Of a stretch of DNA of 64,000 nt, positions 3,598 through 57,710 are shown piece after piece. Positions within the stretch are counted from its first letter, which is position 1, and every line of letters begins with the position of its first letter. The DNA comes from Octopus vulgaris (taxonomy: Eukaryota), in contig OX597816.1 in NCBI GenBank assembly GCA_951406725.2, positions 68,572,001 through 68,636,000 of the forward strand, read 5' to 3'. The translations under genes were made by a program, and so were the position numbers. The notes beneath the pieces were generated by a model. It did no database searches. It saw only the letters and a program-made list of their open reading frames with translations, and was not told the origin of the DNA.

Positions 3598-3965
3598 TCT
3601 TTCCTATACCTATTTCTTTACTACCCACAAGGGGCTAAACACAGAGGGGACAAACGAGGACAGACAAACGGATTAAGTCGATCACATCGACCCCAGTTCT
3701 TATTTAATCGACCCCAAAAGGATGAAAGGCAAAGTCGACCTCGGCGGAATTTGAACTCAGAACGTAGCGGCAGACGAAATTTCTATTTCTTTACTACCCA
3801 CGAGGGGCCAAACACAGAGGGGACAAACAAGAACAGACAAACGGATTAAGTCGATTATATCGACCCCAGTGTGTAACTGGTACTTATTCAATCGACCCCG
3901 AAAGGATGAAAGGCAAAGTCGACCTTGGCGGAATTTGAACTCAGAACGTAGCGGCAGACGAAATT
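3598..3965 (-). mobile_element. SINE family A (MetaSINE-like core), two tandem units
   Basis: Reverse complement of GCCTTTCATCCTTTCGGGGTCGAT core and B box GAGTTCAAATTCC, duplicated in tandem. Confidence 0.8.
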
Positions 3966-6021
3966 CCAGTAGAAATTTAAAGTAGAGGGTTTATTGGAAA
4001 TAGACTTAGAGCAACGGTGTAATCAATCAGCACGAATTGTCCTTAAGCTAATGCCATCTTGAAAGAAATCAGATGAAAAGTTGAAAGTATCATCCATGGG
4101 ATATGCTTGAAAAGAGATAATATCTGGAAAGTGAAGTGATGTATATATGTGAGGAAGATGCTTGTTTTCCTATATGGTAAGTCAAACTTGTATAACTCTA
4201 CAATTTGAACTATGCTGATTATCCCGAGATGGACGTCTGATCGAATAGTAGTCAGTCTATTCGTAAAGCCGTTGAGGGAGGATCGTGAAGTGTTACGCAT
4301 TCTCTCTTGATCACTCCCGATACCTACTGACGTCCAGTAAACGAAACTTCTATTGGGAGCACTTGTACATGCTAGCTGCTTGCTAGTCTAAGTGGCAGCC
4401 AATGTTTTAAATATCCAGGAACAATTTTTATTCAAATTAATTTTGCTACGCACCCGATGATTTGGTCTACTCAATACAACGGTTTAGTAACAATGAACTC
4501 ATTAACTTAATTTGTCTCTTAAGTGGGGGATAAAATTTAATGGAGCATGCAGCTACATCTGCTTTAGTTAACAGCAAATTCGGTTATAAATTTGTGACTA
4601 TCAGCTTTGTCAAGAAATAGTCGTCCAACTTTACTTGAGCGCTTCGACCCTCTAATACTATGTCACTAGTTGGCGAGGAGTCACAGTCACTCTCCTAGCG
4701 TATAACAGGATTAAAAATTTATTCAATGAGACAGTTGAAACTGTTCTTTGATATTTTATTTTGAATCAGATTAGAAAAAAAAATCGACTTAAAAAATATG
4801 TTTACTATTCCTGACGACTTGGAGACTATAGAATATTTTAAAGCTTAATTGTATCATATATATCGTGAGTAAGTATATATTTTACATTGCAACATCTTTA
4901 AATTTTGAAATTAGTCTACATATCCTCAATACGCACTTTGTTGGAACACCCAAGTTGGGAAACAGCTAAGACCAATTTAAATATCGAGCAATACCCAGAC
5001 TGCAGAGATGGTCCGTATTCTTGCAATAAAGTGGACCCTGCTAAAGGTATCCGAAGGATCATCTATGCACAAATGACAGTTGATGGCCACTGGCGTCTGT
5101 GTAATTGACTTGTTCCTTCTCCTCAACATTACTGACCTTCTAGCTTGCAACGGCCTGCCAACGGTTTATGAGAACGTTGTGACTTTGTCGATAAAAATGA
5201 AAAAGTAAGGCTACAGTGCAGACAGTACCAGCATTGAACCTATAGCACCACCATACTTACACTGATTACCTCATTACATATGTGTACTTATTTTATTAGT
5301 TTCGAATTTTAAAATGAAAGGATGGTTTGGCAGATCCATACACGGACTAGTTATATACCGTAAGGCATGGTTGTTGCCACTCTACCAAATTTGGTAATTA
5401 ACCACAGTCACACACTCCGAGATTATTGTAACGTACAGCTATTGCAATAGACCCGAGAATATCACAAACAAGAAATGCCTACGACATTGAGAAACGACAC
5501 CGAAAGCTTATCAGAAAGTTACATAATTCTTTGGACAGCTCCTAAAAATTTAGAACTTTTAATTATATGGCTTAATACTTGTCGAAAATGTGCATATAAA
5601 TGTCAAAGTAATGTCAGAAGAATGACAGGAAAATTCTCTTATATATATAATCAATGCGGGAATATATCTATCTACTTACTTCCCTACATAGCTACCTCCC
5701 TACTTAATCAGCCCGTACCATATACTTATGTACCTAACTTACACACCTCTCTAACTTTCTATTTGTGTTTCAGTAAATATATTTATTGATTTATCCGATT
5801 ATTGATTCGTATATCTATCCAACGTCTTACTAACATATACTTTACATACATATCATTATACGTATTTAACACTTTCTCTCCTTCGCAGTCTCTCCTTTTG
5901 TGAACCCATACGTGCTTTATATGTGGGTATACGCATTTAAATACACACAGGTGTGTGTATGTGTGTGTGTGTGTGTGTGCTGTCGTATGCCTAGCTCATT
6001 TGTCTGATACATATATATATG

Positions 6022-23006: not shown

Positions 23007-23546
23007 CACACTCTCTCTCTCATATAGACAATCCTGCTTCGCACAAATTACCCGCCACTGACACCATCACACACACAAATACATATATGTATATCATTAA
23101 ATATTGATAACAGTATTCGTTGAAATATTCCTCTGATAACAAAGATATTCCACGCTTTCTGTTGTTATTCTATGAAATAATGCAACAAAGCTGATCGACT
23201 GATGAAATAAAAATATTGACCCAGAATCACAAATATTTACCAACGCTAGATTATATGTTGCAGAAATACAGTATTGTTTTCTTTCGCTCAATGCTGTTGT
23301 ATTCATCCCGGCTGTGTTAAGATTCACTCTCTTCAGTTATTTGTTGGTGAGGCTTTGTTCTAGTTCGTGTTTATGTACGTATGTATGTATGTATGTATGT
23401 ATGTATGTATGTATGTATGTATGTATGTATGTATGTATGTATGTATGTATGCCTATATCTATACATATCTTTACGTTCTCATCTATATGTATATATAGAT
23501 CTCTCTATATCATTTATCTAGCTATATATACATACTTACATACATA

Positions 23547-23581
<35 letters not shown>

Positions 23582-23596
23582 ATATCTATCTATCTA

Positions 23597-23637
<41 letters not shown>

Positions 23638-23641
<4 letters not shown>

Positions 23642-24188
23642 TACAAAATTAGAGAATGGAGAAACATACTTAAATCAATAAAACATCAACTATCCGATGA
23701 TACTCAATCCATACTTTAATACACCATTACATAGGAGTAAAGGCAATATATAAAATGAAATGAGATATACAGTAATAGTAAAAGTAAAAAGATAAAGAGA
23801 TATAAGTAAAAAATTACAAATACAATATGCAAATAAATCAAAACTGACAGCTGTTTCGGCAGTGAGGACAGTCATACCTCATTTAACCTATAAGCCATAA
23901 AGGCAGGTATAAATGAGGCATTAACAAAGATGCCCCACGGCCTCTTCAGAGAATTAAATTAAATTTGTTATAATAGTGAAAAATATTATATAATCATATA
24001 CATATAAATATAAAAATATAAAAAAGTAAAATATAAAAACTTATACATCATAATGCTACACTTGTATAATATAATACACATTTGTACAAAAAGGAAGGTA
24101 ACCAGAACAAAATAAAACAAAATATATAACAGTGTATATATAATATTAATAAGTACCGATATCATACATATTTAGCTAATAGTTTTTT

Positions 24189-24231
<43 letters not shown>

Positions 24232-24320
24232 TAACACATATGGAGATGAAAAATAATAATAATTAAATCCGTGGTACAGTTCATAAAATTCTAAAGCTAT
24301 AAAAGTTAATAAAAATTACT

Positions 24321-24354
<34 letters not shown>

Positions 24355-25486
24355 GTAATAAAAATAAAAAATAATAAAAATAGATACAGTTAAGTTATCA
24401 CCAAGTCCATCCTTCAAAGATCGAAATAACTATGAGTTAAGAAATGCTGACCACTAGGTAAAGAAAATTTAGATTAATTCGATTGGCTATTGGTTTGAAA
24501 TTTAAATCACAAAAGAAAATTATACGGTTGGTTAGTCAGGGAACGCCAATATTCACACACGCATCTATAGATCAATCGCACATACACACATAGTTATATG
24601 TATATACATACACTTGTACATATACATAATCATAAGCAACAACTCACACTTAGATAAACAAATAGGGAAGCAACCATGCTAACACTAAGTCCTTCAAAAT
24701 TATAACTGAGCCTAAATAACCAAAAAAAAAAAAGAACCATCCATGCATTCTATAAAATATTTAATTAAGATATAAATGTATTTAAATATCAGTATGTTAC
24801 TAATTCAGATAATTATTTCATGGGTAACTTAAAATTTATAACACCGGTTTGTTGCAGAGTAAACATACGGTTGTTAGGTTTATCGTAAGTTTGTTATGAT
24901 TTAAAGTACGCTAAATTATAAAATATAAAATATAAAATATATTAATTTAGATATTATAAATAAGTCACTTATTAACTTAATAAATATAGTGCCAAAATAT
25001 ACCAGTTTAGGCAATAAAAATAGAGGGGGAAGTATTAATGTAAACGCTTATGAGAACATCACAGAAATTTTAAATAAATTTTATATTATAAAGACTTAAT
25101 ATGAAAAGAGATAAAATAAATAAAAAGGAATAAATACGAAGGAATAAATACGGTTATACACATAATTATAAGTACAAACTAGTATATATGTATTCATATA
25201 TTATTAAAATTAAATAAAAATAAATGATAGATATGTATGTATACAACTACACCAGTATAAGTAAATAAGTAAAGAATAAATAGGTAACAAATTAAATGAC
25301 TTGATATGTATGTAAACATCCACACTTAAATAGGCAAATAAATAAATAAATAGAAGACTAGATGCAAATATTGATAATATTACAATAAAATGGGAAATAA
25401 ATAAAAATAAATAAAGTGAATATATATATTTTATATTGTTGAAAGTAAATATGTATGGAAGGATAGTTTAAAGTACAGATCCAGAG
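23638..25486 (-). repeat. Left inverted arm (~1.85 kb)
   Basis: Reverse complement of 27467-29289; the ORF track gives the identical 61-aa peptide at 23690-23875(-) and 29052-29237(+). Confidence 0.97.
23841..23955 (-). ncRNA. Hammerhead ribozyme motif in the left arm
   Basis: Reverse complement of the motif at 28972-29086. Confidence 0.65.
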
Positions 25487-26866
25487 CATTACTTAAGGCA
25501 GGATATAAAAGTAAGATTTGGTTTATACCTAAGGGGAACCCCCTAATGGAGGTAGAACTATCAAGAACAACACAAATAGATTTAGGATAATCAACAATAT
25601 ACATAAGAATAGTAAAAACAGAATATATGATAACACCTATAATAAATGTAGAAGTGACGTTAACCTTGGAAAGGTGAACGGTAGCTCAAATAGATCTAAA
25701 CATACGAGTAGTAGTAGTAATATTAATAATAATATACGAATTAAAACTTATGGTAGACATGATAATGGTAAAGTTTACTTGCGCAATAACCATGGTAATA
25801 TTGATATAGATAGATGTAACAATGACAGTGGTAAGAATAGTAATCCTATGAGTTGGTCTACGAATAGGATTTTTACAAATAACATTAATTCTATAGGCAA
25901 TCCTAATTCTGATAAGGATACTCTTTGGTTGATTATCCCGTATGCAATGCAGATTAAAACAAACATAGTGAGAGCTTTGCATAATATTATTTTTAGGCAT
26001 TTTGGTAAGGATAGGAATAAATTTAGTCCTTTAATTAACAACGGTACTGTTAGAGTGGGATATAGCATTACTCATAATCTAGCCACCATCATCTCCTCTT
26101 TTAATAACAAGAAACTGGATCACTTCTATAAGGATAGAAAATTGAATTTAGACCAGGAAAACTTGCCCCTCTTCATTAATAATAGGAATAGAAATTTTCT
26201 TGGAACAAATGGGAGCAACCTCCTTACTAATAATGAGTGCACCATACCTGTCAGAGATAATATAAATGTAATAGATCATACCACTACTACCAATACTAGT
26301 ACTAGTGATAGGAATATAGCCGATAATGTGGAATTAACTCATTCGTTGATTTTGGGTTTGGATGATGATAACAATTGTAACACTTATAATGTGAATAGTA
26401 GTATAGGGGTGGTGTCCAATCTTAGATTTCCTCATTCTGTTAATCTTTGTAATTGCAGAAATAAAAATAAATGTGTATTTGGTAATCAATGCCTCAGGAA
26501 GGAGGTAGTTTACCAATGCACTGTAGATACACAATTGAGTAGTAGAGTGTATATCGGGGCAACTATGAATAGCATAAAACAAAGATGGAATTATCATAGA
26601 TATACTTTTAGGAATAAAAATAGAATGTACTCTACAGGGCTAAGTGCATATATTTGGGAACTTAAAAGTAAGAACTTAGATTTTAGATTAAACTGGAAAA
26701 TACTAACTTCAGCACCTGTGTATAATGGAAAAAATAAAAATGCTCTCTATGTATTAATGAAATTTTCTTCATTATTAAAGCGGGTCGGCAAATTATTAAC
26801 AACATTAATGAGAAAAACTTCTTTTGTATTCATAGGCTACCGTTCACCTTTTCTAGATTCAAATAG
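25486..26866 (+). pseudogene. Penelope-like ORF C-terminal part: RT-thumb end, linker, Cys motif and GIY-YIG endonuclease (frameshifted)
   Basis: ALLKAGYKSKIWF from 25486; main ORF 25674-26873 with LWLIIPY..IKTNI..IIFRHF..TVRVGYS..FNNK, CNCRNKNKCVFGNQCL, VVYQC..VYIGAT..IKQRWNYH, STGLSAYIWELK..LNWKIL; after a frameshift near 26740 it continues CSLCINE..IINN..FCIHR to TAG at 26864-26866. Confidence 0.85.
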
Positions 26867-27466
26867 AACTTAGCACTTCCACTATTATCAATTTTTTAAT
26901 TCCCTTCTTTAACTAAATATACCTGTGGTCTTCTATAATTCTAAAGTATACAATTTATAAATTTCATAATTTTATAATTTTTATAGCTACATTTGTATAA
27001 TAACTAATTGGATGTGTCTAGTATTATTGGTTTCTTGGTTTTTGTATGTGGGTTTTTGTTTGTTTTTTTTAAGAGAAATGCAATATGACATAAAATAACA
27101 TATTCATTTTGGTATTTGCCTTGTAATATGTGATTTTTGAAGTTTTCCAATATTGCATAGTATATTGCAAAGTATATATGTATATCTTGGTTAGATACCT
27201 AGCTCTGGATAATGTAATGATATTGTATAATATGTAATATATGAGAGCCTTTTGTGAGTTTGGTGGGTTTAGGTTGAGATTATGGGTTTTTTGTATGTGC
27301 TGATTTGGAAGGTTTTTATTATATATTTGGTCTTTTTGTACTCACCTTAATTTGTATCTTATGCTATTCACTGATAAACCTTTTTCATTTTTTTCATTTT
27401 CTCATTTACATGCATTTTGCTTTATAATTGTTACCAGCTTCATATATTTAGTTTATATCTATAGTC

Positions 27467-28593
27467 CTCTGGATCTGTACTTTAAACTATCCTTCCATAC
27501 ATATTTACTTTCAACAATATAAAATATATATATTCACTTTATTTATTTTTATTTATTTCCCATTTTATTGTAATATTATCAATATTTGCATCTAGTCTTC
27601 TATTTATTTATTTATTTGCCTATTTAAGTGTGGATGTTTACATACATATCAAGTCATTTAATTTGTTACCTATTTATTCTTTACTTATTTACTTATACTG
27701 GTGTAGTTGTATACATACATATCTATCATTTATTTTTATTTAATTTTAATAATATATGAATACATATATACTAGTTTGTACTTATAATTATGTGTATAAC
27801 CGTATTTATTCCTTCGTATTTATTCCTTTTTATTTATTTTATCTCTTTTCATATTAAGTCTTTATAATATAAAATTTATTTAAAATTTCTGTGATGTTCT
27901 CATAAGCGTTTACATTAATACTTCCCCCTCTATTTTTTATTGCCTAAACTGGTATATTTTGGCACTATATTTATTAAGTTAATAAGTGACTTATTTATAA
28001 TATCTAAATTAATATATTTTATATTTTATATTTTATAATTTAGCGTACTTTAAATCATAACAAACTTACGATAAACCTAACAACCGTATGTTTACTCTGC
28101 AACAAACCGGTGTTATAAATTTTAAGTTACCCATGAAATAATTATCTGAATTAGTAACATACTGATATTTAAATACATTTATATCTTAATTAAATATTTT
28201 ATAGAATGCATGGATGGTTCTTTTTTTGTTATTGAGGCTCAGTTATAATTTTGAAGGACTTAGTGTTAGCATGGTTGCTTCCCTATTTGTTTATCTAAGT
28301 GTGAGTTGTTGCTTATGATTATGTATATGTACAAGTGTATGTATATACATATAACTATGTGTGTATGTGCGATTGATCTGTAGATGCGTGTGTGAATATT
28401 GGCGTTCCCTGACTAACCAACCGTATAATTTTCTTTTGTGATTTAAATTTCAAACCAATAGCCAATCGAATTAATCTAAATTTTCTTTACCTAGTGGTCA
28501 GCATTTCTTAACTCATAGTTATTTCGATCTTTGAAGGATGGACTTGGTGATAACTTAACTGTATCTATTTTTATTATTTTTTATTTTTATTAC

Positions 28594-28627
<34 letters not shown>

Positions 28628-29289
28628 AGTAATTTTTATTAACTTTTATAGCTTTAGAATTTTATGAACTGTACCACGGATTTAATTATTATTATTTTTC
28701 ATCTCCATATGTGTTAGCCCTTTTTTTTTTTTTTTTTAAAAAAACTATTAGCTAAATATGTATGATATCGGTACTTATTAATATTATATATACACTGTTA
28801 TATATTTTGTTTTATTTTGTTCTGGTTACCTTCCTTTTTGTACAAATGTGTATTATATTATACAAGTGTAGCATTATGATGTATAAGTTTTTATATTTTA
28901 CTTTTTTATATTTTTATATTTATATGTATATGATTATATAATATTTTTCACTATTATAACAAATTTAATTTAATTCTCTGAAGAGGCCGTGGGGCATCTT
29001 TGTTAATGCCTCATTTATACCTGCCTTTATGGCTTATAGGTTAAATGAGGTATGACTGTCCTCACTGCCGAAACAGCTGTCAGTTTTGATTTATTTGCAT
29101 ATTGTATTTGTAATTTTTTACTTATATCTCTTTATCTTTTTACTTTTACTATTACTGTATATCTCATTTCATTTTATATATTGCCTTTACTCCTATGTAA
29201 TGGTGTATTAAAGTATGGATTGAGTATCATCGGATAGTTGATGTTTTATTGATTTAAGTATGTTTCTCCATTCTCTAATTTTGTAGTAT
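27467..29289 (+). repeat. Right inverted arm / 3' pseudo-LTR
   Basis: Reverse complement of 23638-25486; unique sequence continues to (TA)n at ~29461. Confidence 0.97.
28972..29086 (+). ncRNA. Type I hammerhead ribozyme motif with extended branched stem II
   Basis: CTGAAGA (28978-84) GGC...GCC GAAA (29070-73) cagctg TC; inner helix cctcattta/taaatgagg; stem I is short. Confidence 0.65.
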
Positions 29290-29459
29290 TAATTTACGGT
29301 AATATTATTACCCTTACCCATTTAATACAATAGATGAACTGATTGCTTGACAATTTCTAACATCTATGTATTAATTTTGTTGGGTACCTATCTAGCAGTA
29401 TATTGGATATATATTATCCCATGGTGGGTTGAATTTTCAACCCCTATCTCATTTTATAA

Positions 29460-29497
<38 letters not shown>

Positions 29498-30934: not shown

Positions 30935-31360
30935 TATTCTTTTCTACTCTAGGCACAAGGCCGGAAATTTTGAGGGAAGGGGCCAGTCGATTAGATTGAA
31001 CACAGTACGCCACTGGTATTTAAATTATCGACCCTGAAAGGCAAAGTCGACCTCGGCGGAATTTGAACTCAGAGCGTAAAGACAAACGAAATACCTGTCT
31101 CATTATTACCCACAAGAGGCTAAACATAGAGGGGACAAACAAGGACAGACAAACGGATTAAGTCGATTACATCGACCCCAGTACGTAACTGGTACTTCAT
31201 TTATCGACCCCGAAAGGATGAAAGGCAAAGTCGAACTCGCCAGAATTTGGACTCAGAACGTAGTGGCAGACGAAATACCGCTAAGCATTTCGCCCGTTGT
31301 GCTAACGTTTCTTTTTTTTATTGCCCACAAGGGGCTAAACATAGAGGGGACAAATAAGGA
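30935..31360 (-). mobile_element. SINE family A, tandem units
   Basis: Two GGCAAAGTCGA cores; homologous to 3598-3965. Confidence 0.75.
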
Positions 31361-35827: not shown

Positions 35828-35897
<70 letters not shown>

Positions 35898-35939
35898 AAG
35901 CATGAAAAAAGTTTAACAAGTTCATTAATATATATATAT

Positions 35940-37500
35940 GGTTTGCTGGTGAGAGGTTGATTGGAAACAAAATGGTAATACAACGATATAGGAGTTTCAG
36001 AGATGTGATGGTATATTTAAGAAGTGTACTGTGTTATTTTGATTATATATCGTAGAATAATAACGTATTTTGACTATTTACAATTAATCTACTTGTATCT
36101 TAATTAATAGTATTTTCTGTTTAACTTATTGTGTATGTATTTATACGTCCTTTGATGGGCATACATGTATTTTGTATTATATAATTTAGTAAATATTTGA
36201 ATAGAAACATAGTGGAAATGTAAAGATATAGAATTTTTTTTTAGTGGTAGGATAGTTTGTTTACGGAAAATACGGTGTTATTTTAATTATGTACCTTATG
36301 ATAATTTACATTCTTCATCGGGGTATAAATGTATGTATGATTGCATATACGAATTTATGAATATATGAGTGGATATGTTTGTAAGCATGTATGTGTGTGT
36401 AAGTGTGGGCTAGTATCTCTTATGTTATGTTATGATTTGGCTGTGTATGTGCGTATGTGCGCACGTTTGCAAGTGTGCGCGTGTGGATGTTTCTCAACTA
36501 ACCAACCGTAAAAAACAATTGTAATTTAAATTTAAAAGTATAAGCCAATCAAATTCCGGCGTTCGTTTCATAACTATTTCGGAAATTACTAATATATTAG
36601 TGTCACAATAGAAATTATTAATTCACATGCATCTGTGGAAATTAACACCATGTAAACTGATTGACTTGACTGATTTTTATATGTATGTGCAAATATTTAA
36701 TGCCTTGCATAATACTGTGGTATTATGTTGGTCCCTAGTTTTGCTACTATATTGCTAATTATGTGATATATGTATTGTTTTATTAGTATTAATGTTATTA
36801 GAAATAAGAACAATGATATTGGTAGCATTAATGATATTGATAACAGTATTGATGTTAATATTAATGACTTTTTGTAAATTAATATAAGGTAATACTGACT
36901 CTATATATCTGCATTGAAGTATGAATATGTCTATGTTCTCTACGTTGTAATATCTTAATATTAAGTTGAAAAACATTGACTATGGAACATATATATATTT
37001 TATTGATTTATATTATTTGTATTATTATGTATATGTATATGTGTATGTATAAGAGTATGAGTATATGCACTCATATATATATGTAAATGATTTATTATGG
37101 GTATGTACCCACACTTATATGAGTATATTTGTAATTTGGTTTATACTTTAGAATCTCCGAAGAGGCCTTAAGATATCTTTGCAAATCTCTCATTTTTAAC
37201 TTCATATTGACATACTATACATGGCTAATATAGGTAAAATGAGACATATTTATCTGCATGGCCGAAGCAGCTGTAAGATATAGTGTATATTTATATGTAT
37301 ATCTATTTATATTTATTTATTTATATCCTCTTATAATGATTGTACCTATTGTATTGTATTACTCATTCATGTACGCTGTTTTGTTATATATTTTTATGTT
37401 TAACCTTAATGTTCTTATGTAATGGTTCAATAAAGTAAGTGATTGGGTATTATCTGGTAGTTGATTAATGATTTAGATGTATTTCTCCATTTTCTGATTT

Positions 37501-37502
<2 letters not shown>
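35940..37502 (+). mobile_element. Diverged solo pseudo-LTR related to the 23.6-29.5 kb element
   Basis: Shares three collinear blocks with the right arm: ACTAACCAACCGTA..AGCCAATC, the hammerhead at 37153-37279, and the terminal TTTCTCCATT.TCT.ATTTTG; flanked by (TA)n. Confidence 0.7.
37153..37279 (+). ncRNA. Hammerhead motif with mutated core
   Basis: atct CCGAAGA ggcc...ggcc GAAG cagctg TA agat; inner helix tctcatttt/aaaatgaga. Confidence 0.55.
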
Positions 37503-37564
<62 letters not shown>

Positions 37565-44868: not shown

Positions 44869-46477
44869 CAGTTGCGGCCAAAATGTTCAGAAGGGCATTG
44901 TTTTCGTCAGAAAAGTAGGTATAAGTTTTTATCAAAGTTGTTTTATATTCTATAATTTTCACGGACAATAAATACAATATTAATTGTTATTGTCTGAGAT
45001 TTTGGTGTAATTTGAGGGGACAATACAAAAGTTATGGATGATTTAGTGATTTACTGCAAAACCTATGGCGGCCAAAATGATCAGAACAGTTGAAAAAATA
45101 ACAAAATAATCAAAAATGACAGCAAATACTGGAATTATTTAATATTTAGTGTGAAGTCCTTTAGCTTCAATCACACTCTGACATCTTCGACTGCATGAGG
45201 AAATTAAATTTTCAATTTCTTGCTGGGTGATCTTATTCCATTCTTCCTGAAGGGCATTCCATAATTGCTCAGTTGTTTTAGGATTTCTGGCTTTCGAACG
45301 TTCTCCTAGAATATTCCACACATTTTCAATAGGATTGAGATCTGGGCTTTGAGCTGGCCAATCCATAACAGTAACCTTTTCAGCCTTGAGGAAGTTCATG
45401 ACCACCTTAGTCTTGTGACATGGGGCATTGTCCTGCATGAATATGGGTGGTCGCTTAGTTGAATTTCTCAGCACAGGCAAGACATGATCTTTTACAAGTT
45501 GTTTATAAACTCCTGCATTTAACTTTCCATGTAATCACACCAAAGGGCCCACGCCATCTCCAGATATCATTCCCCAAACCATGACACTTCCTCCACCGAA
45601 TTTAACACTAGTCTTAAGGCATTTAGGCAACAATTTTTCACCTACTTTTCTACGAACGTACCTTTTCCCATCTGAGCCAAATAGCATAAACTGAAATGCA
45701 CCGTTTGCCATTTTTCTTGAGACCACAACACATGTTCGGTTGCAAAGGTAAGACGACACTTTTTATTCTTGGAGCTGATCAGTGGCTTCACTGCAGGTGC
45801 TCTTGCTTGTAGGTCATGGTCAACTAAACGACGAGACACAGTTTTTCGAGATAAAGTTTTCTTCAATACAATGCTCATTTTCCGAGAAACAACAGCAGCA
45901 GTTTTAAATCTGTCCTTTTTAATCAACTTTACCATAGCACGATCTTCTCTCTTGGTCGTTTTTCTTGGCCTACCTGTAAACTTTCTTGCTTCACACGAAC
46001 CACAATCATCGTAGACCTTAAGAATACCGTTTACAACACTTTTTGACTTGTTAACAATCTTTGCAATAGATCCAATTCTTAAATTATCCTTCCTTCGAAG
46101 CTTAATAATCTGCTGACGAATTGGTAACGGAGTAAGTGGCTTAATATTAACAAAGTACACTGCAAATATTCTTACTAATGTTTAGTAAACGAACCGTCAC
46201 GTAAACAAATTCAAAACATTAGAGTTCGCCGGTTAAACATACTAAAACACGGAGTAAAAGCAATCGTTCTGATCATTTTGGCCGCCATGGGTTTTGCAGT
46301 AAATCACTAAATCATCCATAACTTTTGTATTATCCGCTCAAATTACACCAAAATCTCAGGCAATAACAAATAATTTATTGTCTGTGAAAATTATAGAATG
46401 TAAAACAACTTTGATAAAAAATTATATCTACTTTTCTGACGAAAACAATGCCGTTCTTAACATTTTGGCCGCAACTG
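44869..46477 (-). mobile_element. Full-length Tc1-like (DD34E) transposon with ~215-bp IR/DR-type TIRs
   Basis: TA|CAGTTGCGGCCAAAATG ... CATTTTGGCCGCAACTG|TA; TIRs 44869-45087 and 46266-46477. Confidence 0.93.
45139..46160 (-). pseudogene. Tc1 transposase pseudogene
   Basis: GRPRKTT, VKFGGGSVMVWG, FMQDNAPCH, WPAQSPDLNPIENVW with 34 residues between D and E; first catalytic D deleted with a frameshift near 45690; stop at 45535-45537. Confidence 0.92.
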
Positions 46478-52467: not shown

Positions 52468-52624
52468 ATGAAATGAAATAACAGTCGCCCTTCTAACCAA
52501 AGGAACGAAGCCGGAAGTTTTGTCGGAGCAGTGTAGCGGGTTATATGAAATGAAATAACAGTCGCCCTTCTACCAAAGGAACGAAGCCGGAAGTTTTGTC
52601 GGAGCAGTGTAGCGGGTTATATGA
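52468..52624 (+). repeat. ~77-bp tandem duplication
   Basis: ATGAAATGAAATAACAGTCGCCCTTCTA..GTGTAGCGGGTTAT occurs twice. Confidence 0.92.
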
Positions 52625-52839
52625 ACCCCAGCGTTCGATTTGTACTTCTCTCATGAACTTCTAAGAAGGTCTTAATTGAGAAACGCTATGTTGAATTCTA
52701 TGATGAGAAGTCTCCCGCGGTGGAATTTGAACTCAGAACGTAAAAGACAGACGAAATGAGGCTAAGTTATCTGCCTCGCATGCTAACGGCGATGCCAAGC
52801 TCATCATCGATTTAAGTAAGCATAATAATAATAATGATG

Positions 52840-57124: not shown

Positions 57125-57710
57125 CGCCAGCTGGCAGAACCGTTAGCATGCCGGGCGAAATGCGTAGCCGTATTTCGTCTGCCGTTACGTTCTGAGTTCA
57201 AATTCCGCCGAGGTCCACTTTGCCTTTCATCCTTTCGGGGTCGATTAACTAAGTACCAGTTACGCACTGGGGTCGATGTAATCGACTTAATCCGTTTGTC
57301 TGTCCTTGTTTGTCCTCTCTGTGTTTAGCCCCTTGTGGGTAGTAAAGAAATAGGTATTTCGTCTGCCGTTACCTTCTGAGTTCAAATTCCGCCGAGGTCG
57401 ACTTTGCCTTTCATCCTTTCGGGGTCGATAAATTAAGTACCAGTTACGACCTGGGGTTGATCGAATCGACTTAATCCGTTTGTCTGTCCTTGTTTGTCCT
57501 CTCTGTGCTTAGCCCCTTGTGGGTAGTAAAGAAATAAGTATTTCGTCTGCCGTTACGTTCTGAGTTCAAATTCCGCCGAGGTCGACTTTGCCTTTCGTCC
57601 CTTCGGGGTCGATAAAATAAATACCAGTTGATTACGGGGAGGGGGGGTTTCGATGTTATTGATTCACCCTCTCCCTGAAATTTGCTGGACTAGTGCCAAA
57701 ATTTGAAACC
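57125..57710 (+). mobile_element. SINE family A, three tandem units
   Basis: GTATTTCGTCTGCCGTTAC...GGGGTCGAT repeated three times at ~185-bp spacing. Confidence 0.85.

Follow-up and report, generated by a model that had tools for sequence, protein, structure and literature searches.

The Hydra clade of Penelope-like elements (PLEs) is defined by the motifs RWK, DKT, CxCx5C and CxxC/CxH, the absence of CCHH, the presence of hammerheads and the use of (TA)n targets (Craig et al. 2021, PMC8557442; like the other PLE papers below cited from parts of the text). Hydra-1_Obim, a PLE of this clade, is 2,507 bp long and the longest of the 27 listed elements reaches 3,045 bp including an inverted copy (PMC8557442). 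It is typical of PLEs to have inverted 5′-truncated copies and a tail on one end (PMC8557442), inverted truncated copies combined with such a tail have already been described (PMC8557442 Fig. 2 legend, PMC2377424, PMC3846280), and the Hydra member Penelope-13_HM is recorded with a 5′-truncated inverted copy at its 5′ end (File S1, PMC8557442). How the tandem and inverted PLE structures originate is stated to be an open question (Craig et al. 2021, PMC8557442). Here we analyze a palindromic locus at positions 23638-29461 of a 64,000-nucleotide stretch of the Octopus vulgaris genome (contig OX597816.1, positions 68,572,001 to 68,636,000 of the forward strand), which we call the window and to which all coordinates refer unless they are given as positions u of the element's repeat unit. 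We put the probability at roughly 85% that the locus is a recent 5′-truncated sense copy of a 5.6-kb PLE arranged head to head with a shorter inverted copy, both likely stemming from one (TA)n integration by an enzyme that a full-length copy provided. By the motifs of its family it belongs as a new, long element with the Hydra-type PLEs, and it is not a unit devoid of reverse transcriptase (RT); two further papers (10.64898/2026.07.22.740005 and PMC13282606) leave this assessment as it is.

With the Hydra clade the octopus family shares the C-terminal GIY-YIG endonuclease (EN), RW[KR], DKT, a CxCx5C linker, CxxC and CxH surrounding the conserved E and N, the absence of CCHH (judged by eye in the family protein), the (TA)n targets, a 3′ hammerhead-like motif and an inverted 5′ copy (PMC8557442). 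Its unit of 5,586 bp, however, exceeds the length of generally <3 kb, which is typical of the clade without defining it, and compared with the Hydra elements as described there it has two Asn-rich inserts, ~2.7 kb of non-coding sequence and a tail of ~170 nt (PMC8557442). The open reading frame (ORF) of the family encodes ~950 aa, the median of its homologues being 704. Penelope of Drosophila virilis (PMC2377424) and Poseidon PAc of Anolis (PMC11167929) have in common with the octopus family the partial tandems, the inverted repeats differing in size, an optional tail resulting from two RT start sites and AT-rich targets, but they belong to another clade with DKG and CCHH and have a tail of 30-40 bp. 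The Penelope families of Adineta vaga likewise have Asn-rich inserts that stand in frame between RT and EN, and they share the inverted pseudo-long terminal repeats (pLTRs) with a one-ended tail and the palindromic junctions; they differ in their low copy number, their ~200-bp pLTRs and their 31-bp tail, and their target-site duplications are visible whereas within the (TA)n runs found here such duplications are not resolvable (PMC3846280).

The window locus consists of the following features, P and T denoting the proximal 3′ end and the end lying one tail further:

23600-23637, no strand: left (TA)n target site (from the sequence; TRF array 23484-23640)
23638-25486, minus strand: inverted 5′-truncated copy, non-coding, u3754-5586, stopping at the proximal 3′ end without a tail
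23846-23949, minus strand: hammerhead-like motif of the inverted copy (reverse complement of 28978-29081; 25-mer match)
25485-25486, no strand: head-to-head junction with 2-nt microhomology, single in the genome
25487-26873, plus strand: ORF remnant with the RT thumb end, Asn-rich linker, CxCx5C and GIY-YIG endonuclease
26874-29289, plus strand: 3′ part of the sense copy, long and non-coding, of which the left arm mirrors 27467-29289
28455-28526, plus strand: two CCAAT boxes, with 5′ ends clustering at ~28515 (u4803)
28978-29081, plus strand: type I hammerhead-like motif (fold z -3.67)
29290-29461, plus strand: tail of ~170 nt corresponding to the start of the next unit, structured, with hairpins at 29298 and 29426 (z -3.90)
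29462-29495, no strand: right (TA)n target site (from the sequence; TRF)

In unit coordinates the sense copy spans u1772-5586 plus the tail and is preceded by inverted u3754-5586 with a 2-nt overlap; the whole is flanked by unique sequence within a contig of 182 Mb. The arms 23638-25486 and 27467-29289 are 98.4% identical over 1,850 alignment columns and are distinguished by two substitutions (24568 and 24714) and three gaps in A/T runs (21, 6 and 1 nt), two additional mismatches in the alignment lying beyond the junction and outside the arms. The near-perfect inverted repeat with mostly run-length differences noticed in the initial annotation was thus found again. Two substitutions in ~1,830 nt (0.1%) point to a very recent insertion, for which we give no date because errors in the assembly are about as frequent. 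The outer ends had been placed in (TA)n on both sides, which is correct for the ends of the unit but not for the right arm, since the 172-nt tail at 29290-29461 separates this arm from the (TA)n run. The tail has no inverted partner and is present at one end only.

Between the arms lies a core of 1,980 bp, in agreement with the ~2 kb and the GIY-YIG region reported initially. Its first residues are ALLKAGY and its frame of 446 aa (25533-26870) closes with the endonuclease domain. The remnant contains an Asn-rich linker with two stretches of 26% and 22% N, CxCx5C at 26448 and the GIY-YIG endonuclease from ~26505. As had been noted before, the core opens abruptly at the end of the RT thumb. YRDD, DKT and RWR do not occur in any frame of 23600-29480. 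From its insertion onwards the window copy was no source of RT, which has been lost by truncation.

What the truncation removed can be seen at other loci. With 25300-27600 as query we searched the organism's own genome (2.8 Gb) and scored 40 of 630 candidates, which gave 41 other long core matches of 94-100% identity. All 41 start at or just past the junction (query position 186, 195 or 298) and never inside the arm. The recurrence of the arm/core junction, proposed as the mark of a self-contained mobile unit, did not materialize, as a 39-mer spanning the junction has a single match in the 2.8 Gb with up to 2 mismatches allowed. We retrieved 39 ten-kb regions together containing the 41 matches. 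At 38 of these 39 sister loci the sense copy extends upstream of where the window copy starts, into RT sequence, and YRDD is reached at 28 and the ATG at 15 of them. The earlier proposal of a recent truncated PLE with an inverted copy is supported. Tandem copies repeat with the period of the 5,586-bp unit with the ATG at u312, and one sister locus (L060) has a natural uninterrupted frame from RT to EN of 962 codons including YRDD. Many family copies are 98-100% identical.

The arm lengths vary freely among the loci; the shortest arms measure <100 nt and the longest exceed one 5.6-kb unit, so that the arm of 1.8 kb does not represent a fixed pLTR. It had been taken for an unusually long one; it is instead an arbitrary 5′-truncated piece of the ~2.7-kb non-coding region. 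Long inverted repeats around a core are also found in foldback and terminal inverted repeat (TIR) DNA transposons and in miniature inverted-repeat transposable elements; unlike these the family has no fixed ends, no recurring internal junction and no transposase, and its arms are retrotransposon 3′ sequence. At three places (L032+L087, L082+L083 and L066+L089) the inverted arm is longer than the whole 5.6-kb unit. Arms of this size show that templates longer than one unit exist and imply multimeric or circular RNA templates. Of 87 arm ends 15 fall within u4790-4820, a hot spot of 5′ truncation immediately downstream of the two CCAAT boxes. Taken together the hot spot and the boxes make a putative transcription start near 28515 (u4803) possible.

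The family protein (P0001) carries RWR, a conservative variant of RWK, at residue 50 and DKT at residue 151. The motif [YF]xDD is present in all 87 protein homologues, of which 56 have RW[KR], 71 DKT, 60 CxCx5C, 75 CxxC and 72 CxH; the closest source-named homologue comes from Argonauta. In P0089, the protein of sister copy L031, CxCx5C is found at 29, CxxC at 127 and CxH at 155. The in-frame endonuclease domain of L031 is predicted to adopt a GIY-YIG fold (pLDDT 88.9), and the model matches I-TevI (Z 9.9, root-mean-square deviation 2.3, 89 residues aligned) and also T4 EndoII (Z 8.0) and UvrC (Z 6.7). Foldseek gave no match with E<=0.001, its top rows nevertheless being GIY-YIG enzymes. Pfam returned no match for the window ORF, P0001 or P0089 and a PDB sequence search with the family alignment (A1) none either; for one homologue (P0030) RVT_1 appeared at E 4e-5, below the Pfam cut-off. 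One ORF with RT and C-terminal GIY-YIG, as in EN+ PLEs, is found at the family level, and so are partial tandems (pLTR), inverted 5′-truncated copies and an optional tail. Judged by its sequence motifs the family is an RT- and GIY-YIG-encoding PLE with Hydra-clade features.

The hammerhead-like motif at 28978-29081 comprises CUGAAGA, a long branched stem II, GAAA, a minimal palindromic stem III and GUC. Its core and stems II and III fit the layout given in File S2 of PMC8557442. Stem I is weak with 2 bp and U.U mismatches, and the constrained fold lies 7 kcal/mol above the minimum free energy. Rfam did not find the motif and returned only microsatellite-driven noise. An exact 25-mer from it occurs at least 191 times in the genome.

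We used these occurrences for widening the sample of insertions beyond the long copies and included the first 100 of the 191 listed matches. This brought in 40 sites that appeared to be single, 16 additional head-to-head loci and three extensions. Seven loci were not counted: L051 contains an N gap, L067 lacks an outer end, L100 has a shortened end, the second arm of L105 and L120 measures <=10 nt, and L091 and L099 are rearranged. The 3′ ends adjoin (TA)n at nearly all loci, the exceptions including L100, L119 and N gaps, and all of them lie either at P (u5582-5588, a few slightly short) or at T (u164-182, ~170 nt further). Of the 54 scorable two-ended insertions 53 combine one P with one T end, one is P/P (L123, the sole two-ended insertion without a tail) and none is T/T. 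This pairing has a p of 3e-15 against the ceiling of 0.5 for independent ends. Single-ended copies are mainly P (about 27 P versus 9 T). The junction pairs are distinct in 53 of the 54 insertions and the junction overlaps are mostly 0-5 nt. At 10 junctions both arms are cut <=20 nt apart, whereas 1.2 such cases are expected (permutation; maximum 7 in 20,000).

That one RNA was the template of both arms is favoured by the strict P/T pairing and by the occurrence of symmetric junctions. For a Poseidon PLE it has been reported that RT starts at two sites bounding the tail and that both strands are cut and extended, a dimer being predicted (Frangieh et al. 2024, PMC11167929). In our family a dimeric RT-endonuclease might cleave both strands within (TA)n, the two cut ends would then prime cDNA synthesis on the same RNA, one of them at T, the other at P, and after both cDNAs had ended early their ends would be joined through microhomology. 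We consider this dual-strand priming somewhat better than an even bet. We would give even odds to the wider claim that at every head-to-head insertion of the family one dimeric enzyme, using a single RNA, primed both target strands from two fixed sites that are separated by 170 nt. If true, this would account for the inversion of the arms, for the one-tail rule in its strictness and for the surplus of junctions at which both arms are cut at one point, and would make the family a genomic read-out of an unresolved step of PLE integration. Arm-versus-arm distances (0-10 substitutions over up to 1,081 nt) fail to separate one RNA from two RNAs of the same source.

Several observations speak against our interpretation and are given here together with the alternatives they touch. 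The Hydra assignment is one by sequence motifs, and the P/T table of 54 was compiled by hand; 47 of its entries, each within a single locus, were re-scored automatically by motif, and the remaining 7 are either divided between two loci or not recognized by it. Furthermore, the symmetric junctions of L070, L075 and L096 are near-perfect hairpins as expected from self-priming. A single cDNA could fold back, prime itself and copy itself, one end then being trimmed at P by the endonuclease; the 10 symmetric and often hairpin-like junctions would agree with this, as would the window locus, where the P arm lies entirely inside the T-arm span, and self-priming has been proposed for the Adineta PLEs (PMC3846280). 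However, in 17 of the 53 P/T insertions the 5′ reach of the P arm exceeds that of the T arm, so that the P arm cannot have been copied by snap-back from the T cDNA, and five T arms consist of hardly more than the tail (L033, L056, L121, L124 and L129). Neither the longer P arms nor these T arms can be copied from one cDNA of less than unit length. As an explanation of all insertions self-priming appears rather unlikely to us, while for the symmetric cases snap-back with endonuclease trimming (PMC3846280, PMC8557442) is possible.

In the coding remnant at 25487-26873 the frame shifts twice, at a homopolymer run near 25538 and at another near 26735, and the short-read contigs are mostly free of these shifts. 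Against our interpretation the C run near 25538 is one base short in 28 of 39 copies, no copy among the 40 aligned has every run-length site in frame, and in the short-read contigs X15 the in-frame depth at this run is only 5.6 of 11,018. One could argue from these copies and from the low depth in X15 that a programmed frameshift at the G/C run lets the family express RT and EN. Yet the extra C is carried by all the depth in the short-read contigs X1 and X2 and by 986 of 1,236 in X10, the frame is intact in L059 and L069 where the C run is interrupted by a substitution, and on reading of the sequence a canonical slippery heptamer is absent. We regard a programmed frameshift as improbable and the C-run shortfall as a likely run-length error of the assembly. 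At the A run near 26735 many copies are also one base short; here the extra A is read in short-read contigs of X2 and X10, and X15 has little depth for it. The state of this run partly tracks the subfamily, and in older copies the frameshift may be real.

The palindrome itself would be an artefact if the assembly had folded back on itself. Run-length errors are present in the assembly, and among the matches listed from short-read contigs of four runs over 25250-27000 no piece bridges the junction; those contigs are perhaps from other individuals, and we take the result as evidence neither for nor against it. The arms differ by two substitutions, though, the tail is confined to one side, the unit lies between unique flanks, 53 other loci obey the P/T rule with breakpoints of their own, and a sister family of 65-69% identity pairs P and T at two loci, all of which makes an artefact very improbable.

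A further adverse point is the junction u4474|u5504, which is shared by L090 (1614-1692) and L123 (1468-1546) and occurs exactly twice in the genome. Perhaps a non-coding foldback was re-copied here, or 5-nt microhomology could account for the repeat; L123 is doubtful as a direct daughter of L090 because the two differ at the common site u5133. This repeated foldback junction and the young, EN-only core are what remains in favour of the endonuclease-only foldback unit mobilised as a whole, which the initial annotation had offered as the more novel alternative and which we give next to no chance given that the window junction is single in the genome, 38 of 39 sister loci continue into RT and the junction pairs differ in 53 of 54 insertions.

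On its own the locus is a dead copy of an ordinary kind, and its modest importance lies in the family, which is about twice as long as the described Hydra-clade elements, young, and equipped with a tail long enough for unambiguous scoring. The one-tail rule and the symmetric junctions yield countable predictions which are directly testable in an in vitro assay of the type used by Frangieh et al. 2024. A literature search returned neither a tail-pairing count nor same-RNA twin priming for PLEs; older papers on PLE tails may state either. It is plausible that young palindromes of 1-5 kb are fragile sites.

The sister family is represented in the window by a 5′-truncated non-coding copy at 35895-37505 (plus strand) between (TA)n runs. 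At the 3′ end it is 65-69% identical to the main family; the P end is unchanged, the tail resembles that of the main family and the CCAAT region is kept. Its hammerhead-like motif has the core CCGAAGA and a stem II altered on both sides. At least 40 relatives are present in the genome, one of them (L142) with homology to the EN region (64%), and the two cases of P/T pairing are L135/L137 and L143/L144.

Elsewhere in the window a frame of 179 aa (45645-46181, minus strand) appears to resemble the DNA-binding N-terminal portion of a transposase of the Tc1/mariner type. A dispersed repeat occurs at 3696-3967, 31035-31312 and 57136-57620 as short tandems of ~180 bp, 90-93% alike, and is probably derived from a short interspersed nuclear element. 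At 52468-52625 there is a tandem pair of 76-bp copies with 98% identity.

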